DNA of 64,000 bases from an uncultured Gammaproteobacteria bacterium (lineage in GTDB: Bacteria; Pseudomonadota; Gammaproteobacteria; UBA9214), in assembly GCA_963712695.1 (NCBI GenBank), contig CAVQJD010000023.1:47832-111831 (forward strand). Direction: 5' to 3'. Under the pieces are notes generated by a model, which saw only the letters and a program-made list of their open reading frames with translations, ran no database searches and was not told the DNA's origin. Shown in pieces: positions 20,544 through 62,997 of this stretch; position 1 is the first letter of the stretch; the number at the start of each line of letters is the position of its first letter. A program made the position numbers and the translations under genes.

Positions 20544-21219
20544 CGTGAAACGTGAGACGTGAAACGTGAAACGTGAAACGTGAAACGTGAAACGTGAAAC
20601 GTGAAAGGATAGGGGTAAATAGAACAATTGGCCACGGAAGCACACGGAAAAACACGGAAAATATAACAACAGATGTAGGGTGCGTTTTACGCACCGTGCG
20701 GGCCAGAAGCTCGCACGCTGCAGTACCACAGGCAAGTTAATAAGTGGCCACAGAATCCACGGAAAAACACGGAAAAATAAAAAATACAGGCTCGGGAGAT
20801 GTTTGCGCCCCATAAAGTGCGCAAAAGGAGTACAGTGCTTCCAGTGCTGCAGTAATCTGTTTTTCCGTGTTTTTCCGTGGATTCCGTGGCTATTTATCTT
20901 TTCACGTTTCACGTTTCACGTAAACATGATGCATATGCACAGCACTTCCGGTGCGTAAAACGCACCCTACATACCAGCCTGCAGTAATCTGTTTTTCCGA
21001 GTGCTTCCGTGGATTCCGTGGCTATTTATCTTCACGTTTCACGTTTCACGTTTCACGTAAACATGATGCATATGCACAGCACTTCCGGTGCGTAAAACGC
21101 ACCCTACATGCCAGCCTGCAGTAATCTGTTTTTCCGAGCGCTTCCGTGGATTCCGTGGCTATTTTTCTTTTCACGTCTCACGTCTCACGTCTCACGTTTC
21201 ACGCTTCACCTCTCACGCT
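20544..21219. repeat. composite H/B/P repeat locus 1 (rho | M48 peptidase)
   Basis: Nine tandem heptamers CGTGAAA/CGTGAGA (20544-20606). B boxes at 20629 and 20745. GTAG-palindrome at 20675-20695. Then a P'-B'-H' unit in tandem starting at 20847, 20979 and 21116 (periods 132 and 137 bp), ending in the inverted heptamer array 21168-21219. Confidence 0.95.
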
Positions 21220-22320
21220 TCACCCGTCATTGCCCAGATTGCGCAGGCGGTTGATGCGCAACTCGAGTGGCGGATGGGTGGCATACAGCCGGCTGGTCTT
21301 TTCCTGGAAGTTCCTGAACGGATTCACGATGAACATATGCTGCGTCGCGCGGTTCGCACCCCGGAACGGCTGCGCGCTGGTTGCCAGCTTCTCGAGCGCG
21401 GCAATCAGCCCCTCGGGGTGACGGGTCAGGCGCACGCTGGTTGCATCGGCCAGAAACTCACGCTGCCGTGACACCGCCAGCTGCACCAGCAGGGCAAACA
21501 CCGGCGCCAGGGCGGCAAAGGCCACGAGCGCCAGCATCACGAACACGGCATTCGCACCACCTTTTCCGGAACTGCGCGAGCGGTTCGAGAAATACAGCGC
21601 ACGCAGCGCCGCGTCGCTGACCAGTGCGATCAGGCCGACAATAACGCCCACGGCCGTGGCATAGCGAATATCCCAGTTCACGATATGACCCATCTCGTGA
21701 CCGATCACGCCCTGCAATTCCGCACGGTTGAGTGTATCCAGCAACCCGCGCGTGACACCGATGGCGGAACGGGCCGGGTTCATACCGGTGGCAAAGGCAT
21801 TCAGCGCCGGAGTATCGATAACGAACACACGTGGCTTGACGATGCCGGCCGCGATCGCCATTTCCTCGACCACATTGTGCAGCACGGGCTCCTCGTCGGC
21901 CGTGACCTCCTCGGCACCCGTCAGGCGCAGAATGATCCGGTCACCGCTGCGGAATGCAACCCATGACCACACCGCACCGATGCCGAACAGCACCAGTGAA
22001 CACCAGACGCCCCAGCGACTGATGAACCAGACAGTCTCCACTTCGGCGGGCAGACCGTACATGCCGAGCTGCAGCCCCCAGCCCAGCAGGTAACCCAGCA
22101 CGCCGAGGATCAGCAAAAGTGCACCCAGCAAGCGCAGCGTCGCACGCTGGTTGGCACGTGCAGCGGCCAGGAAGTCGGTACGCCGTAGCACCTTGTTGCG
22201 CAGCAACCGGTGCGACTGCCAGTTCGCCTGCAGCGGAATGCCACACTGGCGGCAGGTCCTGGCATGCGGGGAGTTGGCAGCACCACATTCCGGACACTGT
22301 TTGCTATCTGAGGGTGTCAT
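21220..22320 (-). CDS. M48 family metallopeptidase with N-terminal zinc ribbon
   Basis: CPECG...CRQCG ribbon, TM segments, and an HEMGH zinc site. Downstream of lemA, a commonly seen pairing. Confidence 0.8.
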   Translation of the reverse strand: MTPSDSKQCPECGAANSPHARTCRQCGIPLQANWQSHRLLRNKVLRRTDFLAAARANQRATLRLLGALLLILGVLGYLLGWGLQLGMYGLPAEVETVWFISRWGVWCSLVLFGIGAVWSWVAFRSGDRIILRLTGAEEVTADEEPVLHNVVEEMAIAAGIVKPRVFVIDTPALNAFATGMNPARSAIGVTRGLLDTLNRAELQGVIGHEMGHIVNWDIRYATAVGVIVGLIALVSDAALRALYFSNRSRSSGKGGANAVFVMLALVAFAALAPVFALLVQLAVSRQREFLADATSVRLTRHPEGLIAALEKLATSAQPFRGANRATQHMFIVNPFRNFQEKTSRLYATHPPLELRINRLRNLGNDG

Positions 22321-22352
22321 CCGGGTCAGTCAATCATTTGAAATGCATAAAC

Positions 22353-22396
22353 GCCACGGAAAAACGTTTCACGTTTTTCCGTGTGCATCCGTGGCC
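22353..22396. repeat. B-box-derived perfect hairpin (locus 2)
   Basis: CACGGAAAAACG (22355-22366), loop TTTCA, then CGTTTTTCCGTG (22372-22383), followed by CATCCGTGGCC. Lies between lemA and the M48 gene. Confidence 0.9.
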
Positions 22397-22419
22397 GGTT
22401 CTCACCTGGTCAGCATTAC

Positions 22420-22977: not shown

Positions 22978-23025
22978 GGTTATCTCCTTGTGCGAACCAG
23001 CAGGCTGTAATTGTACCGGGCGGAG

Positions 23026-23238
23026 CGTGAAACGTGAGACGTGAGACGTGAACGGTTAAGGAAACTCATGATATTTTGTTAAGCAATCTTTATGTAACTT
23101 ATTAAATAGTACGAGATTGCCACGCTTAGCTCGCAATGACGGAAACGTTTCAATAAAACAGAGCTTCCTTAATATCTTTCCGTGCTCTTCCGTGGATTCC
23201 GTGGCAATTCTTTATATCGCGTCTCACATCTCACGCTC
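23026..23238. repeat. composite repeat locus 3 (lemA | purD)
   Basis: Four forward heptamers (23026-23053), an AT-rich core, a B' box (23176-23208), and inverted degenerate heptamers (23218-23238) that overlap the last purD codons. Confidence 0.9.
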
Positions 23239-24507
23239 GACCGCACGATAGCCGATGTCGGTACGATAATAAACATCCGGCCAGTGGATGTGTCCGATAC
23301 AGGCATAGGCCTGTTGCTGTGCCGCGGCAATGGTGTCTCCCAGCGCACAGACACACAGCACACGTCCGCCGCTGGTCTTCGCGGCCGTGCCGTCCGCCAC
23401 GGTCCCGGCATGAAACACCTTGCATGGCATATCGTCTGCCTCCGCCAAACCCTTGATGATATCGCCCTTGCGATAGCTGTTCGGGTAGCCGCCTGCGGCC
23501 ATCACCACGCCGAGCGCCGCGCGCGTGTCCCACTCGGCCTTGACTGTGTCGAGTCGCCCATCCAGCGCGGCCAGGCACAGCTCCACCAGGTCGGAGCGCA
23601 GGCGGCACATGACAGGCTGTGTTTCCGGGTCACCGAAACGCACATTGAATTCCAGCACCCTGGGCACACCGTCTGTACCGATCATGAGTCCGGCGTAGAG
23701 AAAGCCGGTGAAGGTATTGCCTTCCGCCGCCATGCCGCGAATGGTCGGCAACATCACCTGCTGCATGACCTGTTCGTGAATGGCCGGTGTGACGACCGGG
23801 GCCGGCGAATAGGCGCCCATGCCTCCGGTATTGGGGCCGGTGTCGCCATTGTCACGCGCCTTGTGGTCCTGCGACGTGGCCAGCGGCAGGCAGTGCTCGC
23901 CGTCCACCATGGCAATAAAACTGGCCTCCTCGCCCTGCAGGAATTCCTCGATGACCACGCGGTGTCCGGCCTCGCCGAATACATTGCCGGCCAGCATATC
24001 CTGCACGGCGGCAGCGGCTTCCGCCTCGGTCTGCGCCAGGATCACGCCCTTGCCGGCAGCCAGCCCGTCGGCCTTGATCACAATCGGGGCGCCCTGTTCG
24101 TGAATGTAGGCAAGTGCGGCATCCAGCTCATGAAAACTGGCGTAGGCCGCCGTCGGAATCCGGTGGCGCCGGAGAAAGTCCTTGCTGAATGACTTGGAAC
24201 CTTCCAGCTGTGCGGCCCCGCGCGTAGGTCCGAAACACGGCAGGCCAACAGCGCGGAAGCGGTCGACAATCCCGGCCACCAGCGGCACTTCCGGCCCGAC
24301 AATGGTAAGGCCCACCGCGCTTGACTGCGCGAAGGCGATCAGCGCATCGATCTCGAGCACGTCGATAGCGACATTCTCGACACCCGGTTCACGCGCTGTC
24401 CCGGCGTTGCCCGGCGCGACAAACACGGTATCCGCCAGCGGCGACTGCGCGGCCTTCCAGGCCAGCGCATGCTCGCGTCCGCCATTGCCGATGATCAGGA
24501 TATTCAT
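23224..24507 (-). CDS. purD: phosphoribosylamine--glycine ligase
   Basis: 427-aa ATP-grasp PurD sequence (MNILIIGNGGREHALAWK...). Confidence 0.95.
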   Translation of the reverse strand: MNILIIGNGGREHALAWKAAQSPLADTVFVAPGNAGTAREPGVENVAIDVLEIDALIAFAQSSAVGLTIVGPEVPLVAGIVDRFRAVGLPCFGPTRGAAQLEGSKSFSKDFLRRHRIPTAAYASFHELDAALAYIHEQGAPIVIKADGLAAGKGVILAQTEAEAAAAVQDMLAGNVFGEAGHRVVIEEFLQGEEASFIAMVDGEHCLPLATSQDHKARDNGDTGPNTGGMGAYSPAPVVTPAIHEQVMQQVMLPTIRGMAAEGNTFTGFLYAGLMIGTDGVPRVLEFNVRFGDPETQPVMCRLRSDLVELCLAALDGRLDTVKAEWDTRAALGVVMAAGGYPNSYRKGDIIKGLAEADDMPCKVFHAGTVADGTAAKTSGGRVLCVCALGDTIAAAQQQAYACIGHIHWPDVYYRTDIGYRAVEREM

Positions 24508-24528: not shown

Positions 24529-24976
24529 AATGGCCACGGAATCCACGGAAGAACACGGAAAGATAAAACACTCCAGAGCAGGAGGATGTAACAGGTACTC
24601 ACGTTTCCCTGAAATTTAATGGCCACGGAAACACACGGAAAGATGCAGCTCGTAGGGTGCACTCCGTGCACCATTACCGGCGCGTAAAACGCACCCTACA
24701 TTCCGTCATATCTTGTAATTTTTCCGTGTTCTTCCGTGGATTCCGTGGCCATTATTCGTTTCTGATTTTTCGTGTGCTTCCGTGACCACTCTTCTCGATC
24801 GCAGGGTGCACTCCGTGCACCATTACCGGTGCGTAAAACGCACCCTACATCTCATCCTGCATTAATCAATTTTTCCGTGTTTTTCCGTGGCTATTATTCG
24901 TATCTGATTTTTCCGTGTGATTCCATGTGCTTCCGTGGCCATTCTTCTTTTCACGTCTCACGTTTCACGCTTCACC
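24529..24976. repeat. composite repeat locus 4 (purD | purH)
   Basis: B boxes at 24529 and 24619. Compound GTAG-palindromes at 24652-24699 and 24802-24848. Several B' boxes. Inverted heptamers at 24948-24976. Confidence 0.95.
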
Positions 24977-24978
24977 CC

Positions 24979-26543
24979 TCAGTGCCGGAAGTGGCGCATC
25001 CCGGTGAACACCATCGCGATGCCGTGCTCGTTGGCAGCCGCGATGACCTCGTCGTCGCGCAGCGAGCCGCCGGGCTGGATCACCGCCACGATGCCCGCTT
25101 CCGCGGCCTGGTCGATGCCGTCGCGGAACGGGAAGAAGGCATCCGAGGCCATCACCGAACCCTTCACCTCGAGGCCCTCGTCCGCCGCCTTCAGGGCGGC
25201 CACCCGGGCGCTGTAGACGCGGCTCATCTGGCCCGCGCCGACACCGATGGTCATGCCGTCCTTGCAGTATACGATGGCGTTGGACTTGACGAACTTGCGC
25301 CACGCGCCAGGCGAACAGCAGGTCCTGCACCTGCTGTGCCGTTGGCGTGCGCTGCGTGACGACCTTCAGATCGTCCGCGTCAATCCGGCCCAGATCGCGG
25401 TCCTGCACCAGCAACCCGCCATTGACACGCTTGAAGTCCAGCACGGGCAGCGGCTCGTCTGCCCAGGTACCGCATTCCAGCACACGCACATTCTTCTTTG
25501 TCCGCCAGCACCGGCAGGGCGTGCGGATCGACGGCCGGTGCAATGATCACCTCGACGAACTGGCGCTCGATAATGGCCGCGGCAGTGGCCGCGTCCAGCG
25601 TACGGTTGAAGGCGATGATGCCGCCAAACGCCGAAGTCGGATCGGTTTTGAAAGCACGCTCGTAGGCCTCGAGCGGACTGGTACCCAGTGCCACACCACA
25701 GGGATTGGCATGCTTGACAATGACGCAGGCCGGCCCCTCGGTGAAGGATTTCACGCATTCCAGCGCGGCATCGGTATCCGCCACGTTGTTGTACGACAGT
25801 TCCTTGCCCTGCAGCTGGTGCGCGGTCGCGACGGAGGCCTCGCGCGGTTCGTGCTCGACGTAGAAGGCCGCATGCTGATGCGGATTCTCGCCGTAGCGCA
25901 TGGCCTGTACCTGGCGAAACTGCAGGTTCAGGGTGCGCGGAAAACCGACGTGTGCGCCGTCGGCATCGATTGCACCCAGGTAGTTGGCGATGGCGCCGTC
26001 GTAACGTGCGGTGTGTTCAAATGTCTTCACCGCCAGGCTGTAGCGCATGGCCGCCGGCACGGTTTTGCCGTTGGCGTGCATCGCCTCGAGCACAACCGGG
26101 TAATCGGCGTTATCGACCACTACGGTAACTGCAGCATGGTTCTTGGCCGCCGCGCGTAACAGGGTTGGCCCACCGATATCGATGTTCTCGATGGCCGTGG
26201 GCAGGTCGCAATCCGGACGTGCTACGGTCTGCTCGAACGGATACAGGTTCACGACCACCAGGTCGATGGGCAGGATGCCATTGGCCGTCATGACGGCCTC
26301 GTCGGTACCGCGGCGTCCGAGGATGCCGCCGTGAATACGTGGATGCAGGGTCTTGACGCGTCCATCCATCATCTCCGGGAAACCGGTGAAGTCGGACACC
26401 TCGGTGACGGTGACGCCGGCATCGGTCAACAGCCTGGCGGTGCCACCCGTAGACAGGATTTCCACACCGATCGCGTGCAGCGCACGTGCGAAGTCGACAA
26501 CCCCGCTCTTGTCGGACACGCTGATGAGCGCACGTGCGATCAT
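24979..26543 (-). pseudogene. purH: bifunctional AICAR transformylase/IMP cyclohydrolase PurH, interrupted by two frameshifts as assembled
   Basis: Three frames together give a full PurH: 25380..26543 ([14 protein letters not shown]...PVLADK), then [10 protein letters not shown]...LLFAWRVA, then [27 protein letters not shown]...GMRHFRH. Breaks lie near 25498 (an A/T run) and near 25298. Confidence 0.85.
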
Positions 26544-28807: not shown

Positions 28808-29326
28808 AATGGCCACGGAATCCACAGAAGAACACGGAAAAAAAATTCGATCAGGAAAAGCTGATAAAGTTTTTGATTTTTACGCTCTCTGAGGGTAACA
28901 CCTGGTTAATGTAGGGTGCGCTGTGCGCACCATTGCCGGTGCGTAAAACGCACCCTACACCTGCTTGATTACGGCCTATTGTTGATTTATTTTTCCGTGT
29001 TCTTCTGTGGATTCCGTGGCCATTATTCTTTTCACGTCTCACCTCAATCCCCGGCGCGTAAAACGCACCCTACACCTGCTTGATGACGGGCCTGGTGTAT
29101 TTATTTTTCCGTGTTCTTCTGTGGATTCCGTGGCCATTATTCTTTTCACGTCTCACCTCAATTCCCGGTGCGTAAAACGCACCCTACACCTGATTCGATT
29201 ACGGGCCAGGTGTATTTATTTTTCCGTGTTCTTCCGTGGATTCCGTGGCCATTATTCTTTTCACGTGCCCCGTCTCACGTCTCACGTCTCACGTCTCACG
29301 TTAGTTTCACGTTTCACGTTTCACGT
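28808..29326. repeat. composite repeat locus 5 (DUF3426 gene | prmA)
   Basis: B box 28808-28843. Compound GTAG-palindrome 28911-28958. P'-B'-H' unit in tandem starting at 28936, 29051 and 29165 (periods 115 and 114 bp). Terminal inverted heptamer array 29257-29326 contains the prmA stop. Confidence 0.95.
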
Positions 29327-30223
29327 CCCACGCCTGATACCCGTCAGCAGCACCCACTCGTCACGCCGTTGCGGCGGCTCAAAATCGACCCATGCCGCGT
29401 AGGCCGAGCTGACCGCATCGGCCTGCTCCGCCAGGATACCGGTCAGCAGGATTTTGCCACCAGGACGCAGGTAACCGGCCAGTTCCGCGGCCAGTTCCTG
29501 CAGGGGATTGGCGAGGATATTGGCAATCACCAGGTCCACCGGCACCGAGTCGAGATCCTGCGGGAAGCACACGACGAAATTCGCGACAATCCCGTTGACC
29601 CGGGCATTTTCGCGGGTCGCCTCGAGCGCATTGGGATCGATGTCGGTGGCCACCACAAACCCTGCACCCAGCCGGCTGGCGGCGATGGCCAGGATGCCCG
29701 AACCACAGCCATAGTCGATGACGCGCTGCCCGGCCGGGGGATGTTTATCCAGCCACTCCAGACACATGGCCGTAGTGGCATGGGTGCCGGTACCAAAGGC
29801 AAAACCCGGGTCGAGGGTCACCACGACAGCATCCGGCGCCAGACAGGACTCACCGGAGGGACACACCCACAGACGCTCACCGAAACGCATCGGCCTGAAA
29901 GTCTCCCGCCAGGTGGTGGACCAGTCGCGATCTTCCAGCACGGTTACCGAAAGCCCGGGCACTGGATCCGCCAGCATGGCGCGCAACGCGGCCTCGACCG
30001 CCTGTGCATCGGCATCCGCGGAGAACAGCGCCACCACACGCGGATTGCGCCACACCGGCCGCGTGCCCGGTACGGGTTCGATAAGCAGCTCATCGGCCGC
30101 GTCCTGCAGCGTCACGGACTGCGCCCCCGCAGCCTCGAGCGCCGCCGTCACCGCCTCGACCTGCTCGCGCAGCACATCAATGGAAAATTGCAGCCAGGCT
30201 CTGGACAGTCTTTGAGACATCAT
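29321..30223 (-). CDS. prmA: ribosomal protein L11 methyltransferase
   Basis: ORF 29321..30343, start moved to MMSQRLSRAWLQF (30223). SAM-binding DYGCGSGILA motif. Confidence 0.9.
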   Translation of the reverse strand: MMSQRLSRAWLQFSIDVLREQVEAVTAALEAAGAQSVTLQDAADELLIEPVPGTRPVWRNPRVVALFSADADAQAVEAALRAMLADPVPGLSVTVLEDRDWSTTWRETFRPMRFGERLWVCPSGESCLAPDAVVVTLDPGFAFGTGTHATTAMCLEWLDKHPPAGQRVIDYGCGSGILAIAASRLGAGFVVATDIDPNALEATRENARVNGIVANFVVCFPQDLDSVPVDLVIANILANPLQELAAELAGYLRPGGKILLTGILAEQADAVSSAYAAWVDFEPPQRRDEWVLLTGIRRGT

Positions 30224-30780: not shown

Positions 30781-30828
30781 GTAGGGTGTAATACATGCAA
30801 GCTTCCCGGTGCGTAAAACGCACCCTCC
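30781..30828. repeat. GTAG-palindrome (P module) copy, locus 6
   Basis: GTAGGGTG ... CCGGTGCGTAAAACGCACCCTCC. Confidence 0.85.
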
Positions 30829-30959
30829 ATCTCATGGCGCAGAAGTGCAGACATGCGCGAATCGCGTGGGCAGATTTGTTTGCGGATAACATCCGCTCCT
30901 ACCGTGATTTACTGGGTTTGGTGTGTACAACCGACTTCCTGCCCTGCACCAGCGTCCCG

Positions 30960-32312
30960 CTAAAGTCCGAGCTTCTTTTCCAGATAATGAATATCCGTCA
31001 CCGCCGGCCATGAAAGCGGCATCGGTGCATGATATCGTGGTGCAGCGGCATGTTGGTCTTGATGCCGTCGATGACGATTTCGGTCAGCGCGACGCGCATG
31101 CGCGCCAGCGCCGAGGCACGGTTGTCGCCGTGCGCGATCAGCTTGCCGATCATGGAATCATAGTACGGCGGCACCCTGTAACCGTTGTAGATATGCGTAT
31201 CCATGCGGATGCCCGGGGCCGCCCGGGGCGTGGTAACTGGGTGATAGTGCCGGGTGACGGCATGAAGTTTTTCGGGTCTTCCGCGTTGATGCGGCATTCG
31301 ATGGCATGGCCGCGGATCTGTGATGTCCTCCTGCTTGTACGTCAGGCCCATCGCCGGCCGCGATATGCAGCTGTTCCTTGACGATATCGACGCCGGTGAC
31401 CATTTCGGTGACCGGGTGCTCCACCTGCACGCGGGTATTCATTTCGATGAAATAGAACTCGCCGTTCTCGGTACAGGAATTCGAAAGTACCGGCACCGCG
31501 GTACTTGAGTCTGGCGACAGGCCTCCGCACAGCGCTCGCCCATGTCCTGGCGCTGCTCCTCGGTAATGCCCGGCGCCGGCGCTTCCTCCACCACTTTCTG
31601 GTGGCGGCGCTGCATGGAACAGTCGCGCTCGCCGAGGTGGATGGCGTTACCCTCGCCGTCGCCCAGCACCTGGAATTCGATATGGCGCGGCTTCTCCAGG
31701 AATTTCTCCATGTACACCGACGTCGTTACCGAACGCGTTCTTGCGCCTCGGTGCGGGTCAGCGAGATCGCCTCGAGCAGATGCGCCTCGGCGTGCACCAC
31801 GCGCATGCCGCGCCCGCCACCGCCGCCGGCGGCCTTGATGATGATCGGGTAGCCGATCTCGCGGGCCAGTTTGAGATTGGTGGCGTCATCTTCCCCCAGC
31901 GGACCGTCGCGAACCCGGCACACAGGGCACACCGGCCTCCTTCATGGCGCGGATGGCGGCGACCTTGTCGCCCATGGTGCGAATGGTTTCCGGCGCGTGG
32001 CCCGATGAAGATAAAGCCGCTGCTGCTCCACCTGCTCGGCGAAGTCGGCGTTCTCGGACAGAAACCCGTAGCCCGGATGAATCGCACCGCATCGGTCACC
32101 TCGGCGGCGCTGATGATGGCCGGGATATTCAGATAGCTGTCCGCGGACGGCGCCGGACCGATGCAGACGCTCTCGTCCGCCAGCAGCACGTGCTTGAGAT
32201 CCCGGTCGGCCTCGGAATGCACGGCCACCGTGCTGATGCCCAGCTCGTGGCAGGCACGCAGGATACGCAGGGCGATTTCGCCCCGATTGGCGATGACAAC
32301 TTTCTCCAGCAT
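30960..32312 (-). pseudogene. accC: biotin carboxylase AccC, about a dozen or more frameshifts as assembled
   Basis: Conserved AccC segments are spread over all three minus-strand frames: [167 protein letters not shown]. Confidence 0.85.
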
Positions 32313-32781: not shown

Positions 32782-32997
32782 GTAGGGTGCGCTCTGCGCA
32801 CCGTGTGCTGTGTATGCTCTGTAACCTTTATCCCCCTCTCTCTCCGGGGCGCCGACAGGGAGGTCGGTTGTAGCGCAACCCAGGGAGCAGTTGCCGAGAG
32901 GGCCGGGGAGAGGGAACAATAACCTATTTAATAATCTGAAATTTTTTGATACCCGCTTGCCTGTTTTTCCACGTTCTTGCGCGGTTTCCGTGGCCAC
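32782..32997. repeat. repeat locus 7 (accB | aroQ)
   Basis: P-type palindrome GTAGGGTGCGCTCTGCGCACC (32782-32802). Long imperfect hairpin CCCTCTCTCTCCGGGGC...GCCGGGGAGAGGG (32832-32914). Degenerate B' box (32961-32997) that reaches the aroQ stop. Confidence 0.85.
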
Positions 32998-33441: not shown

Positions 33442-34179
33442 CGTCTAATTCATGCAGTTTTCGTAGCTCAGGTGTATTTCGATGCATTTAAGGCAATATA
33501 CATATCATTTAACGAAACACGAGCAGTATTATCCATCTTCTGCATTAATTGTCCAGTTCCCCGTATTTAGCATCAATTTCATTCACGTTTAATGCAATAG
33601 TCCTAACGGTTTCATTCATATAAGCTCCAGTCAAGATGCAGGATAGATTTCAGCAATCTCTAACAAATTGTGGTTACTACAAGTAGTGGTTATGCCGCCT
33701 CTACCACACTCTGCCACGGGGCATTACCTCTCGACGCCTTATGGGGCCGCCCGGCATTCTCTTACACGAAATCCATTTTCTATTGCCGTTTGCTGAATGG
33801 ACTCAATGGACACGCGACAGGCACAGATACCGATCGAGCCACTCTCACCATAAAGTTTGGATGAACGGCTCCAGGTATGTGTTCTCTTACAACTTGCCAG
33901 GTTAATGTGACGCAACTGGATGTCCAGTTTGTCGTCCATCTTGATAGGACTGCTACTGTTTTATGTTTTATGGGTCGTAGCTACAGAGATAGATTAGACT
34001 TCCCGCATCATTCCATGATGCGTTCTGCAGTCAGGATGTCACGAGCTGTGGATGTCGAAAATCCACATCAATATCCAAATTTTCCCGATCGCAGAAATAA
34101 ATTTTGTTCAGGTTTCAACAGTGTTTAACCGATGGGAGAATTACCGCAATAGCCAGGTTGCGGAAGGGGAATCGCCACT

Positions 34180-35977: not shown

Positions 35978-36069
35978 TAAGTACAGGTCTACGAAAGCAA
36001 TAATTGCGATAGGAATGTCGGTTGCACGGCACCCCTTGATCAGGTTCCAGCATCCGACACTAAATTGAT

Positions 36070-37530: not shown

Positions 37531-37565
37531 AAAAAAACCGGGTAGGAAACCCCACCCGGCTTTTT
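37531..37565 (-). terminator. rho-independent (bidirectional) terminator after the 198-aa sorted protein
   Basis: A7, then CCGGGTAGG, AAA, CCCACCCGG, then T5. On the minus strand this is a stem followed by a U7 run, about 50 nt past the stop at 37613. Confidence 0.7.
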
Positions 37566-37612
37566 CTGTGCATTAGCTGACTTTAACTTAATGCAAGCTC
37601 GGCATAATTAGA

Positions 37613-41032: not shown

Positions 41033-41044
41033 ACCATCCAGCAG

Positions 41045-43748: not shown

Positions 43749-43824
43749 TGTTTAGGATCTCCTGATATTGACCACCATAATCGCGTCACTAGTCGCAATT
43801 AGTTACAAATACAAGCGCATCGAG

Positions 43825-44178: not shown

Positions 44179-44229
44179 CTCGCCAACTGAAATTTCAATT
44201 AAAATCGAAATGAGCAGGTACCTCCCTTG

Positions 44230-50011: not shown

Positions 50012-50084
50012 TAGCGCTTGCAGACAAACCATCAGTTAACTCACGACTTGCCTTGCCAACCCAGTGAGTGTGGAGGATATTTTT

Positions 50085-51356: not shown

Positions 51357-51381
51357 AACTGCTGCAAGGTTTTGCACGAAA

Positions 51382-51412
51382 AGGCGCAGTCAGCAATGAC
51401 TGCGCCTTTTTT
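51382..51412 (+). terminator. rho-independent terminator
   Basis: GGCGCAGTCA, loop GCAA, TGACTGCGCC, then T7. Lies 26 nt after the stop at 51356. Confidence 0.85.
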
Positions 51413-51541
51413 TAGGGATACTTAGCTGTTTGGAACAAGCACCATGATATTGACGCGCCGACAGCTATCTGTTCCAATGATGCAAATTGTTTACAATTCA
51501 GACTCTTGGTTGTTTCATCATCACCCTGGGAAATAATTGCC

Positions 51542-52102
51542 ATGACAAGATCCTATATTGCTTTGCTGGTAACGATACTGTCCTTTGTCAGCCAATCCTA
51601 GACTGCGAGTGCAGACGAGACTGTCTATCGGATTCAGCCCGGAGACATCCTGGACATCTCGGTCTGGAAGGAAGAAGACCTGATTCGACAGGTTCTGGTG
51701 CGTCCGGATGGAGGAATTTCATTTCCGCTGGCCGGTGATCTGCAGGCGGCCGGCAGATCGATTGCTGAACTGCAGAGTCTGATCATCGAACGTCTCGAAA
51801 AATACATCCCTGATCCGCTGGCTACGGTTGCGGTACTCAAGCTGGACGGGAACAAGGTGTATGTCATCGGCAAGGTGGCGCGGCCGGGTGAGTTTATTGC
51901 CAACCGGTACCTGGATGTCGTCCAGGCGTTGAGTATGGCCGGCGGCATGACCCCTTATGCCGCGGCCAACAAGATATCGATCCTGCGCCGGACCAATGGC
52001 AAGCTGACATCCATACCGTTTAAATATGGCGACATAGAGAAGGGAGATAACCTGCAGCAGAATATTATTCTGCAGAGCGGGGATGTGGTGCTGGTTCCGT
52101 GA
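51542..52102 (+). pseudogene. polysaccharide export protein (Wza-like periplasmic type) with an in-frame TAG in the signal peptide
   Basis: ATG at 51542 gives MTRSYIALLVTILSFVSQS, then TAG (51599-51601), then TASADETVYRIQPGDILDISVWKEEDL...SLBB-like C-terminus, all in one frame. The track ORF starts only at 51698. Confidence 0.8.
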
Positions 52103-52175
52103 GGTGAAACGTGAAACGTGAAACGTGAAACGTGAAACGTGAAAAATCATAATGGCCACGGAAGCACACGGAATA
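52098..52175. repeat. repeat locus 8 (H array + B box)
   Basis: CCGTGAG contains the export-gene stop. Six heptamers GTGAAAC follow (52104-52145), then a two-copy CACGGAA box (52152-52175). Confidence 0.95.
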
Positions 52176-52365
52176 ATATTTAAGAAAAGACCTTTTTGAT
52201 ATTTTGGCAGCGAAGTCAAAATAATTGCTTAACAATAGCTACTGCGTATTTCTCCGGGCTGGATTCCCGCTTTCGCGGGAATGACATCTTGAGTATGGGA
52301 TTCCAGGACTGTTTTGACAGTGTGGAAATATTAAATTTACGCAGCGTCCAAAGAGCCATTGCCAT

Positions 52366-53682: not shown

Positions 53683-53716
53683 TAGCCACGGCAGCACACG
53701 GAATAACACGGCAAGA
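53683..53716. repeat. degenerate B box (locus 9)
   Basis: ATAGCCACGGCAGCACACGGAATAACACGGCAAG. Confidence 0.8.
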
Positions 53717-54186: not shown

Positions 54187-54208
54187 CGGTACGTAAAACG
54201 CACCCTAC
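54187..54208. repeat. P' palindrome copy (locus 10)
   Basis: CGGTACGTAAAACGCACCCTAC, followed by the same GATTACGGCCT flank seen in locus 5. Confidence 0.85.
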
Positions 54209-59108: not shown

Positions 59109-59522
59109 ATGCAGTTTGCAACAGGTTGGAGTCACCCGCTACGCCGGCTCTTCCAGGTGCTGACCCTTGGCTGGGCCGCACTGATCTACTACCTCTCACA
59201 TCAGCCGGGCATCACTTACCCCCTGCTGTTCGCGCAACAGGACAAGCTCATGCACTTTATCGCCTACGGCGTGCTGGGCTTTCTGGCTATGGGTTCCTGC
59301 AATGCAGGCCGTTCCCGGCACCGGGCCGTGCACTACTGGCTGGTGGTGTCACTGGTTGGCGTCTACGGCGTGCTGGATGAGGTCCACCAGTACTTCGTCC
59401 CCGGCCGCCACAGCGATGTGCTCGATGTGCTGGCCGATATCAGCGGTGGCCTGCTCGGCGCCGGGCTGATGTTCCTGCTGCTGCGCAGGTTCACTCCACC
59501 GTCAACACCGACAGCCAGGTAG
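59109..59522 (+). CDS. VanZ family membrane protein
   Basis: Within track ORF 58638..59522, starting at MQFATGW. About four TM helices and VanZ-like blocks (KLMHFIAYGVLGFL, DEVHQYFVPGR, DVLADISGGLLG). Confidence 0.7.
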   Translation: MQFATGWSHPLRRLFQVLTLGWAALIYYLSHQPGITYPLLFAQQDKLMHFIAYGVLGFLAMGSCNAGRSRHRAVHYWLVVSLVGVYGVLDEVHQYFVPGRHSDVLDVLADISGGLLGAGLMFLLLRRFTPPSTPTAR

Positions 59523-59867
59523 GGTGCGTTTTACGCCCCGGGCGCGGTTTATGAAGTACGCCTTTACAGGATTCAGACAGGTCAATTAATGGCCACGGAA
59601 TCCACGGAAAAAATAATGCGGGTGTATAGGCAGGGTGCGTTCTACGCCCCGGGCAAGGTGCACAAAGTGCACCCTACAAAAGCTCTTCAATGCACCCTGC
59701 ATGCAATTTTTCCGTGGATTCCGTGGCCATTACCCATCGCGCATGGAATGCGCTCCTGCAGCAACGATTACGACGTGATTCACCTTTCACGTCTCACGTC
59801 TCACGTCTCACGCCCCATGCATCCTGCAGGAATTATTTCCATGTTCTTCCGTGGATTCCGTGGCCAT
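59519..59867. repeat. composite repeat locus 11 (vanZ | cysQ)
   Basis: P copy overlapping the vanZ TAG (59519-59537). B box 59588-59614. Compound palindrome 59631-59677. B' 59706-59730. Inverted heptamers 59783-59813. B' 59836-59867. Confidence 0.95.
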
Positions 59868-60710: not shown

Positions 60711-60860
60711 GGGTATTTCCTTGTATTGATGATTGTAAAAAGCTGCCCTGCCTGCTCCAGGCGCACCGATGTTTCATTACACAACTGGCAGGACATGGAA
60801 ACATGGCAGGCAAGTATACCCTGCCAATGTGGTCCCGTGCGCCTGCCCCCCTTATCAATG

Positions 60861-61117
60861 CAGGGTGCGTTATACGCACCAGCCAGAGCACAGGCACTCC
60901 CGGTGCGTAAAACGCACCCTACGCCTGCGGGATTATTTTTTCCGTGTTCTTCCGTGGGTTCCGTGGCTAATAATCCTTTTTTCACGTCTCACGTCTCACG
61001 CTCGTCACCATTGCATCCAGCAGGCACTATTTCCGAATTCTTCGCTGGTTTCCGTGGCCATTATTTCCCTGCAGGGTGCACCTTGTGTACCTTTACCGTT
61101 GCGTGGAACGCACCCTG
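60861..61117. repeat. composite repeat locus 12 (cysQ | HAD gene)
   Basis: P 60861-60880, P' 60899-60922, B' 60934-60970, inverted heptamers 60976-61003, degenerate B' 61028-61061, compound palindrome 61072-61117. Confidence 0.95.
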
Positions 61118-61190
61118 CGCCGGCGCCTGCACCAACCGACATTGCGTTCTGCTACCATTGACAACGGCTCTCAAGCAGACGGGTTTGCAA

Positions 61191-61865
61191 ATGATCCACT
61201 GGCAGGAAATCGACTGTGTATTCCTCGATATGGACGGGACGCTGCTGGATCTGCATTTCGACAATCATTTCTGGCGCGAACATGTCCCGCTGCGCTATGC
61301 CGAGCAACACCGGCTCGACATCGAGTCTGCGAAATCCGAACTGGTCCCGCGATTCCGGCTCAAGGAAGGCACGCTGGACTGGTATTGCGTGGAATACTGG
61401 AGCCGCGAACTCGGGCTCGACATTGTTGCACTCAAGCGCGAGGTGCATCACCTGATCGCAGTACACGAACATGTACCCGAATTTCTCCGGTGCGTGCGCG
61501 CATCCGGCCGGCGTGTCGTCATGCTGACCAATGCCCATGCCAGAAGCCTGGAACTCAAAATGGAGGTGACCGGACTGGCCGGCGCTTTCGACGCCCTGGT
61601 GTGTTCGCACGACCTCGGCTATCCGAAGGAAGACCTGCGCTTCTGGTCCGAACTGGAACGCCGGGAACACTTCAGCAGGGACAGCACTCTGTTCATCGAC
61701 GACAGTCTTGCCGTGCTGCGCACGGCGCGTGAGTACGGCATCGGCCACCTGCTGGCAGTGAGCAAACCCGACACCCGCTCACCGCTACGCGAGATAGACG
61801 AATTCATCTCCATTGAGGGATTCGACGAGATCATGCCGACGGAGAAGGTGAAACGTGAGACGTGA
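61191..61865 (+). CDS. HAD-superfamily hydrolase (YrfG-type nucleotidase-like)
   Basis: Within track ORF 60543..61865, whose N-terminal part is repeat-derived. Start at MIHWQEIDCVFLDMDGTLL (DxDGT motif I), then MLTNA and IDDS motifs. The last codons (KVKRET, stop) lie inside the heptamer array. Confidence 0.8.
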   Translation: MIHWQEIDCVFLDMDGTLLDLHFDNHFWREHVPLRYAEQHRLDIESAKSELVPRFRLKEGTLDWYCVEYWSRELGLDIVALKREVHHLIAVHEHVPEFLRCVRASGRRVVMLTNAHARSLELKMEVTGLAGAFDALVCSHDLGYPKEDLRFWSELERREHFSRDSTLFIDDSLAVLRTAREYGIGHLLAVSKPDTRSPLREIDEFISIEGFDEIMPTEKVKRET

Positions 61866-62219
61866 GACGTGAGACGTGAAAGGTGAAAGGTGAAAGGTGA
61901 AAGGTGAAAGGTGAAAGGTGAAAGGTGAAAGGTGAAAAAATATTAGCCACGGAATCCACGGAAGAACACGGAAAAATAAAAAATTCTGAGAGAAGCTCAG
62001 CTTACACAGCCGTCGGTAATCAGGGCGACACACTCACACTGGTCATTCCCGCGCAGGCGGGAATGACATGGCTGGAGAGTCGCGACATAGTGTGTGTAAA
62101 GGCGTAGGGTACGTTTTTAATTTTTTCGTGGATTCCGTGGCTATTCTTGTTTCACGTTTCACGCCTCACCTTTCACGTTCACCTTTCACGTCTCACGCCT
62201 CACACCTCACGTTTCACGC
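61848..62219. repeat. composite repeat locus 13 (HAD gene | ykgJ-like gene)
   Basis: Thirteen forward heptamers (61848-61938: 1 GTGAAAC, 3 GTGAGAC, 8 GTGAAAG, 1 GTGAAAA). B box 61942-61976. ATTCCCGC-N4-GCGGGAAT hairpin 62042-62067. P-like 62104-62118. B' 62119-62144. Inverted heptamer array 62147-62219. Confidence 0.95.
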
Positions 62220-62651
62220 ATGCCCCACCTGGCTGTCGCGGCTTGCCGCGTACTTGTGCCATGTCTTGAAGCGTTTCCTGACATATTTCAGCAGCGCTGC
62301 GTAATCCTCGAAAAACAGTTCGAAGCCACTCTCGGCCGGTTCGTCGAACTCGCAGTAGTCGTTGGTGTATTCGCGGCAGATCACCGGACGGTCATCGTAA
62401 ATGCCGCAGCGACCGTCTTTCTGCAGGTGGGTGCAGCTGTTGTTGATCAACAGGTACCAGCCGTCTTCGTCCTTGTAGGCCTGAATGTCCCGGTGTGAGA
62501 GCTGCCAGAGCAGGTGGTCGAAATCATGCATGGAGCGCGGCGTCGCCAGCTCCTCGGTGATATAGGTGCAGCACTTGGAGTTGGTGCAGAAACCGCACTT
62601 GTTTTCTGTGGTGATCTTCACGCCAACCGGAATGTTCTTCATCGTTTTCAT
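62214..62651 (-). CDS. YkgJ-family cysteine-cluster protein
   Basis: CGFCTNSKCC, then CTHL...GRCGIYDDRPVICREY, a Cys pattern typical of the YkgJ/UPF0153 family. The stop TGA lies in the first heptamer unit. Confidence 0.8.
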   Translation of the reverse strand: MKTMKNIPVGVKITTENKCGFCTNSKCCTYITEELATPRSMHDFDHLLWQLSHRDIQAYKDEDGWYLLINNSCTHLQKDGRCGIYDDRPVICREYTNDYCEFDEPAESGFELFFEDYAALLKYVRKRFKTWHKYAASRDSQVGHA

Positions 62652-62800
62652 GGATTACAGTACAGTCAAAATTGATGGATTAACGCAAGTTCGTGTAATA
62701 AACAGGAATGCCAGGCATCGCGACAGGCAGAATACTGGATGCATGTGTCTTTGTATCCCGGTTCCGGCGCGTAACACCCACCCGTCACAGTCACTGCATT

Positions 62801-62997
62801 AATTTTTCCGTGTTCTTCCATGGATTCCGTAGCCATTTTGTTCAAGCCGCACTTCGTACCCACTCACGGTGCGTAAAACGCACCCGACATCTGCGTTTTT
62901 AATTTTTCCGTGTTCTTCCGTGGATTCCGTGGCCATTTCATTTCACGTTCTCACGTCTCACGTCTCACGTCTCACGTCTCACGTCTCACGTCTCACA
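62801..62997. repeat. composite repeat locus 14 (ykgJ-like gene | PilZ gene)
   Basis: B' 62801-62836, P' 62865-62888, B' 62901-62936, inverted heptamer array 62937-62997 (about 8 units of TCTCACG). Confidence 0.95.

Follow-up and report, generated by a model that had tools for sequence, protein, structure and literature searches.

Across a 64,000-nucleotide stretch of gammaproteobacterial DNA (the window), the same short sequences recur in 14 intervals between genes, which raises the question of whether they form a genuine repeat family and, if so, of what kind. They are a mosaic family that is real, non-coding and hairpin-forming, built from three short modules: a heptamer array (H), a longer arm (B) and a small palindrome (P). 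The family is apparently a relative of REP/BIME-type repeats without earlier description. Modules are present at all 14 loci (Table 1). The core of B (27 nt, up to three mismatches) matches 16 times in the window, with none expected from 100 dinucleotide-preserving shuffles; P (21 nt, up to three mismatches) matches 17 times and a pattern of three heptamer units 45 times, counting overlaps, the chance expectation again being zero for each. TRF identified period-7 arrays together with tandem multimers of half-elements at periods of 137 and 115. Together the 14 intervals cover 3,473 nt, close to the 3.5 kb given in a preliminary description of this DNA, and 17 module-painted bases lie outside them.

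Table 1. Positions and composition of the repeat loci in the window.
Positions	Strand	Location	Composition	Flanking genes and remarks	Basis
20544..21223	.	entire rho/M48 convergent gap	largest composite; left: H(9 units), B variant 20630-20661, P 20675-20695, B 20746-20777; right: three tandem mirrored half-elements, B'(20860)/H'/P'(20950)/B'(20992)/H'/P'(21087)/B'(21129)/H'(21169-21223)	H begins directly after rho stop codon (20541-20543); M48 stop codon (21220-21222) inside terminal heptamers	pattern maps, TRF
22353..22396	.	M48/lemA gap	short hairpin of B-type units (GCCACGGATGCACACGGAAAAACG / CGTTTTTCCGTGGCG); single heptamer-like unit, P absent	weakest of the 14 loci; under B pattern thresholds	read by eye
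23026..23238	.	lemA/purD gap	H(4 units), 128-nt core, B'(23175-23206), H'(2 units)	heptamers encode final purD codons and stop (REM*)	
24529..24976	.	purD/purH gap	composite: B(24532), B variant, REP doublet, P'(24679), B'(24719), second REP doublet, P'(24828), more B' variants, H'(24949-24976)	purH stop within H' array	pattern maps, sequence reading
28808..29332	.	DUF3426/prmA gap	composite: B(28811), head-to-head P doublet (28911/28938), three tandem [B' P'] (period 115), H' in two blocks (29273-29332)	heptamers encode last prmA codons and stop (RGT*)	pattern maps, TRF
30781..30828	.	prmA/accC gap	degenerate P doublet (GTAGGGTGT remnant, P' 30808-30828)		
32782..32997	.	upstream of accB	P variant (32782-32802), 161-nt core, degenerate B' (32964-32995)		
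52098..52175	+		lone half-element: H (6 units, 52103-52144), two-unit B variant (52153-52173)	H array abuts stop codon of polysaccharide-export gene, gap 0	
53683..53716	+	downstream of outer-membrane protein gene	three-unit B variant (CACGGCA/CACGGAA/CACGGCA)		
54187..54208	-		solitary P, 1 mismatch		pattern match
59519..59867	.	vanZ-like/inositol-monophosphatase convergent gap	composite: P(59519), B variant, P doublet (59630/59657), B' variant, H'(59785-59812), B'(59834-59865)	TAG stop of vanZ-like gene comes from GTAG tag of P	pattern maps
60860..61118	.	divergent gap	composite: P doublet (60860/60902), B'(60937), H'(60980-61000), degenerate B'(61028), degenerate P doublet		pattern maps
61845..62219	.		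full inverted repeat, cleanest of all: H(13 units), B(61945-61976), core, shortened B'(~62127-62143), H'(~10 units)	core contains unrelated palindrome (62045-62064); flanking ORFs on both sides terminate within H arrays	pattern maps, TRF
62801..62997	-		tandem right-hand half-elements: B'(62803), P'(62868), B'(62903), H'(7 units, 62949-62997)		

All 14 loci are intergenic and lie among housekeeping genes, with neighbours that include rho, an M48 peptidase gene, lemA, purD, purH, DUF3426, prmA and accC/accB, as well as vanZ-like, inositol monophosphatase and HAD hydrolase genes. Their density is as unusual as had been claimed: between 20.5 and 33 kb, modules occupy six of the eight gaps of at least 50 nt by pattern, or seven of eight when 22353-22396, which falls below the pattern thresholds and was added by eye from the sequence, is counted, and between 52 and 64 kb they occupy seven of nine such gaps. 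The nine gaps scanned in the first 20.5 kb hold no modules, and a low-GC island at about 34-52 kb (45-53% GC) is nearly free of them, with 14 painted bases. Two genes of the window, purH and accC, are frameshifted relative to intact orthologues, and its assembly seems to be error-prone. Such errors lend some colour to the idea that the repeats are an assembly artefact or chance low-complexity sequence, to which we give next to no probability. It was rejected on the zero chance expectation for every module and on the recurrence of the same modules, in the same grammar, in independent isolate and MAG assemblies.

The architecture of the elements is one of nested layers, in which P is innermost, an inverted pair of B arms surrounds it, and outward-facing H arrays are outermost. 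Different modules within 80 nt of each other are co-oriented in 26 of 26 cases in the window; outside it, the same applies to 65 of 66 cases in loci selected for B and to five of five in loci selected for M48. The preliminary description had proposed three modules of fixed polarity, assembled into a large imperfect inverted repeat with heptamer arrays at its outer ends, and both proposals stand. Full elements are predicted giant hairpins; the predicted fold of 61845-62222 has a free energy of -192 kcal/mol (z = -17), and that of 23020-23240 a z of -5.2. Other parts of the description need adjustment. The fixed order H-B-P holds up to cyclic permutation and not as a strict linear order, because half-elements have been tandemly multiplied; the loci at 22353, 30781, 53683 and 54187 hold a single type of module; and two arrays extend a few bases beyond the ends originally assigned, into stop codons (21223 and 29332).

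The three modules differ in how far they can be linked to known sequences. P is an ordinary GTAG-tagged REP, frequently arranged in head-to-head doublets (REPIN-like), with an unpaired GTAG tag, a 7-bp stem and a 3-nt loop, and with 6 nt between the members of a dimer. Membership of an already described family, which had been named as a finding that would count against a new element, applies to P alone, which matches the published definition of GTAG-tagged REPs (PMC3733652), and not to B or H. The repeats match no family in Rfam, and among the publications searched none has the module sequences. The view that the architecture resembles BOX/BIME composites and is not a named element is borne out.

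B is a discrete 31-nt arm of three CACGGAA units spaced 9-10 bp apart, and in aligned copies its conservation ends at about 31 nt. Neighbouring copies within 400 bp form 92 convergent pairs, each corresponding to a hairpin, versus one divergent pair. Conservation peaks at the outer 24 nt, together with an invariant T at -2 and A at +2. Among 16 predicted pairs between the arms, 12 have no compensatory (two-sided) change and seven are fully invariant; substantial compensatory change occurs at two pairs, which separate CACGGAA and CACGAAA subtypes, and the covariation term is -0.71. Judged by these alignments, the arms are conserved in sequence and not in structure alone. Partner arms share 92 changes, compared with 43 ± 8 when partners are shuffled, and the inner arms change in concert over all three units (CACGAAA, CACGGAC, CGCGGAA). 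The minimal form, an 85-bp B-loop-B' hairpin, is found in many genomes. The exact 27-mer occurs at more than 117 loci, from Marinobacter, Oceanisphaera, Tamilnaduibacter, Ectothiorhodospiraceae and many Gammaproteobacteria MAGs, and B recurs with hardly any change in numerous other bacteria of marine and sediment origin. Arms are conserved over several gammaproteobacterial lineages; loops, cores and spacers are genome-specific. B is an independent and widespread hairpin element.

Comparison of genomes indicates how the elements turn over. The absence of a conserved module order elsewhere had been put forward as a reason to doubt the family; the same grammar was found in several other genomes. 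In one related MAG, a 93-nt core, different from the cores of the window, is common to three of four aligned copies, and its purD/purH gap holds an additional copy, whose core points the opposite way with respect to the genes on either side. Whole B-core-B' units are copied inside a single genome, and both orientations occur. Occupancy was surveyed at 80 orthologous loci selected by protein and not by repeat. Among relatives with at least 70% M48 identity, elements occupy 18 of 41 M48/rho gaps, 17 of 42 lemA/M48 gaps and 12 of 31 purD/lemA gaps; at 67% identity or less no gap is occupied, save for one 14-nt pattern match. Polymorphism between strains was found in a near-identical pair (L118 and L119) whose flanking genes are 97-100% identical. 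One has an empty M48/rho gap of 95 nt; in the other this gap measures 393 nt and contains H-B-core-B'-(TCACGCT)22. The entire spacer is replaced up to both stop codons, with no clean insertion junction, and recombination between old alleles may be an alternative source of this difference. Their orthologous lemA/M48 elements differ by exactly one heptamer, and heptamer number changes by slippage. The same gaps are also occupied in distant genomes (carB/greA and around nrdA), and elements in Marinobacter lie within transcription units: in the nrdA leader, in the nrdA-nrdB interval, and between carB and a canonical terminator. Overall, 37 elements lie in convergent, 66 in tandem and 14 in divergent contexts, versus a background of 104, 376 and 99, which is a bias towards 3' ends.

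The relationship to gene ends is closest for H. This outward-facing microsatellite, (CGTGARA)n, is an instance of the intergenic heptamer microsatellites already known from other bacteria (PMC4692102, PMC4679880), for which positions near or overlapping stop codons have a precedent (PMC4692102). Of the 16 gene 3' ends examined in the window, nine have their stop codon within an H array or the GTAG of a P module, or immediately next to one, and 22 of 45 strict H arrays adjoin the end of a coding-like ORF. Each forward heptamer contains TGA and seven is not divisible by three, so, whatever its reading frame, a gene running into the array meets a stop in seven codons or fewer; an element that inserts or expands at the end of a gene would therefore do no harm.

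The explanation we lean towards is a palindromic mosaic repeat family of the REP/REPIN/BIME type, non-coding and non-autonomous, whose members depend for their movement on an enzyme from another locus and have grown by slippage. The hairpin-forming units would be moved or homogenized in trans by an enzyme acting on single-stranded hairpin DNA, which for P would be a RAYT-type HUH tyrosine transposase and for B a RAYT-like 'TIRYT' or some other enzyme. The palindrome would then grow outward by template switching and replication slippage, mirroring the heptamer array to both sides and pressing it against coding sequence. Transcription of the upstream gene probably runs on through the element, whose RNA would fold into a long stem-loop that, by analogy with REP/BIME, may affect mRNA 3'-end stability or termination. 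Precedents exist for REP dimers within longer palindromes and for RAYT-like genes with long TIR families on either side (PMC3733652). We infer the mobilizing enzyme, since neither the window nor related loci totalling 1.43 Mb yielded a RAYT or any other transposase. REP sequences usually drift along with their RAYT, so the near-identity of B over different orders is unusual for this model, and would require either that B spread horizontally in recent times or that the partner recognizing it is very conserved. The occupation of the same gaps in distant genomes could reflect selection for a host function instead of selfish spread.

Such a function would be central if the B arms, and perhaps the H arrays, were sites for host DNA-binding or nucleoid-associated proteins under purifying selection, architectural or regulatory and not mobile, with three units on one helix face acting as an insulator, a gyrase-type site or a regulator site. 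The spacing of CACGGAA is about one helical turn, the arms are far more conserved than loops, cores and even adjacent coding DNA, above all at the outer 24 nt and the fixed T and A, and the concerted variation of inner arms is as expected for a recognition code co-evolving with its protein; the shared gaps in distant genomes point the same way. This reading is nevertheless unlikely, given that elements are patchy in close relatives and missing both at 67% M48 identity or less and in 5,426 E. coli genomes, that near-identical strains differ in their presence, and that copying involves entire elements, genome-specific cores included, and both orientations. No known consensus was matched, neither an IHF core nor a parS palindrome was found, and 3' UTR, 5' UTR and intercistronic positions are used alike, with no consistent relation to promoters. 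It is similarly doubtful that the elements are mainly RNA structures, that is, domesticated 3'-UTR or intercistronic stem-loops that serve termination, exonuclease blocking or RNase III recruitment and whose spread is secondary. An action of this type has been proposed for REPs (PMC3733652), and would suit the 3'-end bias and proximity to stop codons, the very stable predicted hairpins, the Marinobacter elements inside transcription units, and the outer B' end CCGTGGATTCCGTGG, which is followed by a T-rich tail and was called terminator-like 10 times. However, arms that are conserved in sequence with nearly no covariation are unlike a purely structural RNA, minimal elements of other genomes have no consistent U-tract after the stem, the carB/greA gap has its own canonical terminator after the element, divergent promoter gaps are occupied too, and a match in Rfam is absent.

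Inverted 31-nt termini with the best conservation at their outer ends, small size, lack of coding capacity and variable cores are also features of classical MITEs. B would then be the terminal inverted repeat of deletion derivatives of a DDE-type IS, with a full-length copy elsewhere. Multiple internal direct repeats are known from the ends of Tn7, Mu and IS21-type transposons, and both the presence/absence polymorphism and a host range that is wide yet patchy, suggesting horizontal spread, fit such an origin. It is quite improbable in view of the searches for signs of this mobility: no target-site duplication of 2 to 7 nt was found at 57 elements, and no autonomous copy or B-ORF-B' arrangement among about 330 arms in 1.43 Mb, where the largest convergent spacing is 826 nt. 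No protein family, transposase-like ones included, recurs beside the elements, and neither a set of 72,556 plasmids nor the viral contigs gave a match.

Among known systems, E. coli BIMEs are similar in being intergenic mosaics of REPs in alternating orientation and other short conserved motifs, often tandemly multiplied and sited after genes or between cistrons. They have no sequence relationship to this family (the minimal B element gave no match in the E. coli genomes). Here the motifs other than REPs are a 31-nt arm of three units and an array of heptamers, with no IHF-type motif found, and the REPs are innermost in an element that is entirely one large palindrome. BOX elements of S. pneumoniae are modular (boxA-boxBn-boxC), with one module variable in number and outer modules that form a stem-loop. 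These properties are shared, but the variable module of BOX is internal and 45 nt long, in contrast to a 7-nt array at both outer ends, and sequences and host phylum are unrelated.

In the REP/REPIN-RAYT system (PMC3733652, PMC3116915), the GTAG tag, short stem-loop, head-to-head doublets, high copy number and extragenic, 3'-biased location are like those of P, and concerted evolution of copies within a genome and lack of target-site duplication are shared too. The differences are that no RAYT accompanies the repeats in the loci searched, that single B arms are neither palindromic nor GTAG-tagged, and that B keeps its sequence over orders, while for REPs divergence from genus to genus is usual. 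TIRtrons and TIRYT-associated TIR families (PMC3733652) resemble B as long inverted repeats that have no relation to REPs and whose dimers or clusters make up families of moderate abundance, although their sequences differ, no flanked tyrosine-transposase gene was found here, and outer heptamer arrays are not described there. REP doublets inside a longer conserved palindrome, as in A. variabilis GTAG-15 and H. neapolitanus CGTC-1 (PMC3733652), are a direct precedent for P between B arms. MITEs such as Correia/NEMIS and ERIC, and the P. gingivalis MITE with a minisatellite (PMC4596501), are also small, non-coding, bounded by inverted repeats and polymorphic in presence, may be co-transcribed with neighbouring genes, and in one case join a MITE with tandem repeats; this family differs in having no target-site duplication or parent IS, and its tandem repeats lie outside the inverted arms and not inside. 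Finally, H is like the heptamer microsatellites of cyanobacteria (STRR), Xanthomonas and Nostoc (GGGAATC-type, PMC4692102) and Beggiatoaceae (TAACTGA, PMC4679880) in its tandem 7-nt units, variable number and intergenic excess, and those of Xanthomonas often lie within 50 bp of stop codons or overlap them, sometimes as inverted pairs (PMC4692102). It differs from them in its unit, CGTGARA, which has no G-quadruplex potential, and in being physically coupled to a specific hairpin element with a fixed outward polarity.

Three modules recur within the window, which has a G + C content of 56.5%, far more often than in shuffled sequence. The 27-nt core of the arm B has 16 matches and the palindrome P has 17 (each at up to three mismatches, with GTAG kept in most copies of P), and a three-unit pattern of the heptamer H gives 45 overlapping matches; the number expected from 100 dinucleotide-preserving shuffles is 0.00 for each. 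Chance low-complexity sequence, which the preliminary description had named as the alternative to its three-module family, is excluded, as is artefact. The modules are present at the 14 intergenic loci where they had been reported, and the earlier figure of about 3.5 kb corresponds to a summed length of 3,473 nt, with only 17 module-painted bases outside these intervals. A scan of the window for tRNA and tmRNA genes found none, and an Rfam search of it at gathering and permissive thresholds gave only one spurious match to a miRNA hairpin.

P consists of GTAG followed by GGTGCGT, TTT, and ACGCACC. All of its copies in the window are intergenic, and they are often paired head to head, 6 nt apart with GTAG facing outward, as are copies in related MAGs. 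It therefore has the tag and short palindrome, the high copy number, the extragenic location, and the inverted dimers of GTAG-tagged REPs, which are defined by an unpaired terminal GTAG beside a short palindrome with a stem of 6–13 bp and a short loop (PMC3733652). A second GTAG-tagged REP family, with the stem GTAGGAGCGG...CCGCTCCTAC, coexists with P and takes its place in some relatives. B is a discrete module of ∼31 nt, with conservation that stops at its edges, and is made up of three CACGGAA units at a spacing of 9–10 bp; variants with two or three units are also present, for example CCACGGAAGCACACGGAAAAACACGGAA. H, or (CGTGARA)n, is an array of head-to-tail 7-nt units whose number differs between strains, as in intergenic heptamer microsatellites. 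Arrays in the window have 2–13 units, counts that may be slightly off because frameshifts in purH and accC make an error-prone assembly probable. The window copy of purH reads in three frames, and orthologues of both genes in relatives (L125 and L046) are intact, which suggests assembly indel errors, probably from long reads, rather than true pseudogenes. Such errors would also account for the lack of any exact database record for the proteins of the window.

Different modules that lie within 80 nt of each other are co-oriented in 26 of 26 cases in the window, in agreement with the fixed polarity originally proposed. The fixed order proposed with it holds in part: modules read H-B-P toward the centre of an element and P'-B'-H' away from it (a prime denotes an inverted copy), and cyclic permutations arise because half-elements, each one side of the full inverted repeat, have been tandemly multiplied. 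Tandem Repeats Finder detected period-7 arrays together with period-137 and period-115 repeats, the latter two being tandem multimers of whole half-elements. Complete elements are predicted to fold into very long hairpins, in keeping with the description of large inverted repeats with heptamers at their ends. A fourth palindromic repeat, ATTCCCGC-N4-GCGGGAAT, for which ∼0.02 copies are expected by chance, occurs twice in the window, and one of these copies is inside the core of a complete element; the repeat resembles the Neisseria dRS3 pattern ATTCCC-N8-GGGAAT.

Positions of features in the window and in loci fetched from related genomes and metagenomes (the latter marked by L-numbers)
Feature	Position	Remarks
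Intergenic loci with H/B/P modules	20544-62997	14 loci
Array beside rho	20532-20560	unit GTGAAAC; rho ending ATGAAACGC
Array beside rho, related strain	L119:5560-5575	unit GTGAAGC; rho ending ATGAAGCGG
B-like hairpin	22353-22396	
Predicted fold	23020-23240	z = -5.2
Predicted fold of complete element	61845-62222	-192 kcal/mol; z = -17
Element with fourth palindrome in its core	61845-62219	
Fourth palindrome	52263-52282; 62045-62064; L021:5085-5104	
Second GTAG-tagged REP family	30884-30904; L048 (rho/M48 gap); L054	
purH, frameshifted	24965-26543	
accC, frameshifted	30963-32312	
Low-GC island	34000-52000	45-53% G+C vs 58-62% elsewhere
Leader in nrdA 5' region, Marinobacter	L024:1620-1700; L116; L093	CCTGAGTCCGAAGACCTGCCAGGGA...CTGCACCTTCGCG...AGGTGAGCAG
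Inverted repeat around minimal B hairpin	L070:2750-2910; L070:7600-7745; L072:1580-1740	GATAATGACGGATG ... CATTCGCCATTATC
200-bp repeat with central minimal B hairpin	L018; L027; L056	
Tandem repeat (CTTTGCGN)n, example sites	L135:2907; L171:3947; L118:1777	

The ORFs that flank the elements are ordinary housekeeping genes (rho, M48 peptidase, lemA, purD, purH, DUF3426, prmA, accC/accB, a vanZ-like gene, inositol monophosphatase, and a HAD hydrolase). The Rho protein of the window resembles that of E. coli, the gene order aroQ-accBC-prmA-DUF3426-dusB-fis-purHD agrees with that in Pseudomonas, and the closest relatives found are labelled Gammaproteobacteria; on these three grounds the organism is assigned to the Gammaproteobacteria. 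The elements occupy entire intergenic gaps, and at 9 of the 16 gene 3' ends examined in the window a stop codon lies inside or directly beside H, or beside the GTAG of P. For example, the TAG stop of rho is followed without a gap by CGTGAAA, and the vanZ-like gene takes its TAG stop codon from a P tag. Heptamers encode the final codons of purD (REM*), purH (GEA*), prmA (RGT*), the HAD gene (VKRET*), and a 145-aa ORF (HA*). Across all sequences examined, a coding-like ORF ends at −19 to +39 nt from the array start in 22 of 45 strict arrays. Since the forward heptamer contains TGA and seven is not divisible by three, an outward-facing array stops any incoming frame within seven codons. The complementary strand of H is free of stop codons, and for this reason spurious long ORFs run through the elements and ORF calls are lengthened by them.

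The density of the elements, described earlier as unusual, is borne out by their presence in seven of the nine gaps between 52 and 64 kb and in seven of the eight between 20.5 and 33 kb, counting one B-like hairpin that is short, was read by eye, and falls below the pattern thresholds. Modules are found in 0 of 9 gaps between 1 and 20.5 kb, and the low-GC island at ∼34–52 kb is almost free of them (14 painted bases). This island, whose codon-position signal is weak and whose edge contains polysaccharide-related genes, was probably acquired horizontally. Elements lie in runs of consecutive gaps while neighbouring regions of similar composition are empty, in the window and also in three related loci (L077, L088, and L090); such clustering is compatible with short-range spread or local conversion.

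Several of the fetched loci are syntenic with the window, at 70–85% nucleotide identity. The MAG MFD02923.bin.2.38 has B-pair elements with outer heptamers in its rho/M48, M48/lemA, lemA/purD, and purD/purH gaps, as the window does. Its heptamer unit is AGTGARA or GGTGARA, and a 93-nt inter-arm core, common to three of four aligned copies and unrelated to the cores in the window, is inverted relative to the flanking genes in the purD/purH copy. The rho/M48 gap of a third relative contains no H, B, or P. In an unbiased sample of 80 orthologous metagenome loci, chosen by M48 protein similarity, all 80 keep the purH-purD-lemA-M48 order with convergent rho. In relatives that share 70% or more M48 identity, modules are present in 18 of 41 M48/rho gaps, 17 of 42 lemA/M48 gaps, and 12 of 31 purD/lemA gaps, and gaps with modules are much longer than empty ones. 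Relatives with at most 67% M48 identity have no modules in the orthologous gaps, except for one 14-nt pattern match.

Two near-identical strains, L118 and L119, differ by a whole element. They share 97% identity across lemA-M48 and 100% across 268 nt of rho. The M48/rho gap of L118 is 95 nt long and free of modules; that of L119 is 393 nt long and is filled by H-B-core-B'-(TCACGCT)22, flush with both stop codons, and the rho stop codon is TGA in L118 and TAG in L119. Their lemA/M48 elements are orthologous (97% identity) and differ by exactly one heptamer, with four units vs three. The presence/absence polymorphism between strains that the preliminary description had raised as a check is thus found at an orthologous site in this pair, and presence is patchy among the 80 loci, as for a mobile repeat. 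The L119 core was considered as a remnant of the ancestral spacer and rejected: its score of 24, vs 15 ± 2 for shuffled sequence, is confounded by the (CTTTGCGN)n-CGAGA repeat family. This tandem family, in which the repeat is followed by CGAGA or GGTGA, has 53 sites in related loci and none in the window, and sometimes lies just upstream of a start codon, as at purD in L135 and L136.

The exact B 27-mer was scanned against 185,579 species genomes, giving at least 117 loci, and 8-kb pieces around each match were read. Among the matches listed are at least seven named Marinobacter species, Oceanisphaera, Tamilnaduibacter, three Ectothiorhodospiraceae MAGs, one Lysobacteraceae MAG, many unclassified Gammaproteobacteria or Pseudomonadota MAGs, and one Anaerolineaceae MAG that is possibly a binning error. 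Marinobacter nauticus ABH-585 (CP085245) is one of the B-rich isolates. Searches of 5,426 E. coli genomes and 72,556 plasmids with the minimal B element, and of a viral contig collection with the exact B core, found nothing, although the BLAST low-complexity filter could mask weak matches. The conserved module order, on which the preliminary description had made the family depend, recurs with the full H-B-P grammar in SMAG_U14246, MFD10246, MFD02832, and two Ectothiorhodospiraceae bins.

Neighbouring B arms at most 400 bp apart are convergent in 92 cases and divergent in 1, and the convergent pairs form the inverted termini of 80–500-bp elements without an ORF, as in MITEs. The minimal form, found in many MAGs, is a hairpin of ∼85 bp in which B and B' are joined by a 17–18-nt A/T-rich loop. 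In an alignment of 50 of these, loops from several unrelated MAGs carry AAAAGCCTTA..AGAAA as a partly conserved motif, in one orientation or the other, an indication that the 85-bp element forms a discrete unit and has a master sequence. The usual form in Marinobacter is nested, B1-B2...B2'-B1', with inner arms that use the variant units CACGAAA and CACGGAC (CGCGGAA in Tamilnaduibacter) and change in concert in all three units and the partner arm. Marinobacter elements also lie within transcription units: in the nrdA leader, in the nrdA/nrdB interval, and between carB and a separate canonical terminator. Upstream of the nested element in the nrdA 5' region, three Marinobacter species have a strongly conserved leader that may be a regulatory RNA or an operator. 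B hairpins are repeatedly nested within lineage-specific palindromes; in one MAG the minimal hairpin is wrapped in an inverted repeat that looks like a Fur box, and in another it is central in a 200-bp repeat.

Different explanations can be considered for these elements. A primary role at the RNA level, as a terminator or stabilizer, draws on the predicted stability of the hairpins and on their 3'-end bias: by crude ORF and GC3 gene calls in the fetched loci, B clusters lie in 37 convergent, 66 tandem, and 14 divergent contexts, with an all-gap background of 104, 376, and 99. REPs show a 3'-end bias of the same kind (PMC3733652). In the window, the outer B' end with its T-rich tail was called terminator-like ten times. 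However, elements also occur in divergent gaps, the T-run after minimal B elements elsewhere is not consistent, one element being followed by a separate canonical terminator, and the arms are conserved in sequence without covariation. Of the 16 outer base pairs predicted within the 50 aligned minimal hairpins, 12 lack two-sided (compensatory) change and 7 do not vary at all; such change is substantial at two pairs, where 12–13 sequences have A-U in place of G-C and which distinguish CACGGAA from CACGAAA subtypes, and the covariation energy term is only −0.71. Deviations from the consensus are common to partner arms 92 times, vs 43 ± 8 for shuffled partners, and most are nonetheless one-sided. 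Conservation of B peaks in the outer 24 nt, with a fixed T at −2 and A at +2. Such a pattern is suggestive of recognition by sequence or of recent common descent, and not of a purely structural RNA; the RNA-level explanation is weakened. An array for binding of a host protein is consistent with units spaced about one helical turn apart, with strongly conserved sequence, and with elements that recur in the same gaps, but it too is weakened, by the patchy presence among close relatives and by the copying of units.

A classical DDE-type MITE would account for the inverted termini and the polymorphism. Against this, 57 elements have no 3–7-nt direct repeat above chance at any offset, their flanks prolonging the palindrome (through the T at −2 and A at +2) in place of target-site duplications, and the fetched loci contain no parent IS with B termini; this explanation is likewise weakened. 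No B...ORF...B' arrangement was found among ∼330 arms, and all-against-all clustering of 679 neighbouring ORFs for a co-travelling gene returned only syntenic housekeeping families (greA, nrdA/nrdB, typA, and others). Tblastn and HUH..Y motif scans of the 64-kb window and of 1.43 Mb of related loci found no RAYT-like ORF, although such a sample is expected to miss a single-copy RAYT gene. The tblastn search, with one RAYT sequence as the query, gave only spurious matches in rsmI and nuoL-type ORFs, the six-frame HUH...Y scan of the 1.43 Mb gave one spurious match, and no RAYT-sized ORF lies in the 464 nt that separate two P doublets of L135.

From the lack of target-site duplications, the hairpin ends, and the REP association, we infer an enzyme that acts on single-stranded hairpins. 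Encoded elsewhere, it would move or homogenize the hairpin units; template switching at the quasi-palindrome, together with slippage, would then mirror the arrays and expand them outward until coding constraint was met, and the all-frame TGA would make this growth harmless to the neighbouring gene. The units and rho endings of the rho-adjacent arrays, compared in two cases only, hint that such an array may have originated at the final codons of the gene, by seeding from them or by conversion against them. Independent half-elements, one per gene end, are insufficient as an explanation, as complete inverted pairs also lie between tandem genes. A bolder proposal, which we consider improbable, is that the H-B half-element seeks gene ends. 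It would dock on or grow from the last codons, rewrite the stop with an all-frame TGA array templated on the terminal codons, and then be mirrored into a palindrome, and its 31-nt arm would be recognized by an enzyme or protein that has kept the same specificity in several gammaproteobacterial orders.

Marinobacter, Oceanisphaera, Ectothiorhodospiraceae, and many MAGs have near-identical copies of B, which is nevertheless missing from close relatives, a distribution that points to a mobilizing enzyme of unusually stable specificity or to recent spread across orders. Cultivable Marinobacter makes both the arrays that hug stop codons and the partner that would recognize the B arm accessible to experiment. 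The coupling of heptamers to hairpins and the overwriting of stop codons connect three repeat classes that have mostly been treated separately (microsatellites, REPs, and MITE-like hairpins), and such coupling is a possible explanation for the excess of heptamer repeats between bacterial genes. Furthermore, the elements break up short-read assemblies and could act as strain-typing markers.

Several named systems were rejected as identities. Integron attC sites (RYYYAAC ... GTTRRRY) do not match the element ends, GCCACGG/CCGTGGC, and the neighbours here are syntenic housekeeping genes. The heptamer of the window resembles a half-site of the 16-bp parS palindrome TGTTTCACGTGAAACA bound by ParB, though none occurs in the window at up to three mismatches, and heptamer units in related genomes include AGTGAGA. 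A CsrA sponge was considered, as CACGGAA conforms to the motif CANGGAN, but a perfect duplex would hide these motifs, they occur on both strands, and inner arms carry CACGAAA or CACGGAC instead. The sequences do not fit CRISPR, IHF sites, DnaA boxes, or metJ boxes.

An open-access full-text search for the module sequences gave nothing relevant, only unrelated primer matches. REPs and intergenic heptamer microsatellites are known kinds of repeat; no description was found in open-access full text of H, B, and P coupled in a fixed way as a single palindrome with three layers, nor of a B arm conserved across orders. The family joins a short list of bacterial mosaic intergenic repeats, is recognized with ease, and has hosts that include poorly studied sediment and marine Gammaproteobacteria. 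Intergenic heptamer microsatellites include cyanobacterial STRR, GGGAATC in Xanthomonas, and TAACTGA in Beggiatoaceae, and the Xanthomonas repeats are often within 50 bp of, or overlap, stop codons and are sometimes found in inverted pairs (PMC4692102, PMC4679880). As a direct precedent, RAYT-like 'TIRYT' genes are bounded by long inverted repeats that make their own repeat families (PMC3733652). With MITEs the family shares inverted termini and short, non-coding elements, whereas it differs from them in the absence of a target-site duplication; searches for B in plasmids and viral contigs, like those of the fetched loci, yielded no candidate for an autonomous IS. It has no homology to the E. 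coli BIME/PU/REP family in the minimal B element, but shares the architecture of BIMEs, with P doublets, B, and H in a fixed grammar and tandem multiplication. The composite, BIME-like interpretation first offered is supported by this comparison, and the data are consistent with mosaic repeats of the REP/REPIN/BIME kind that are not autonomous.
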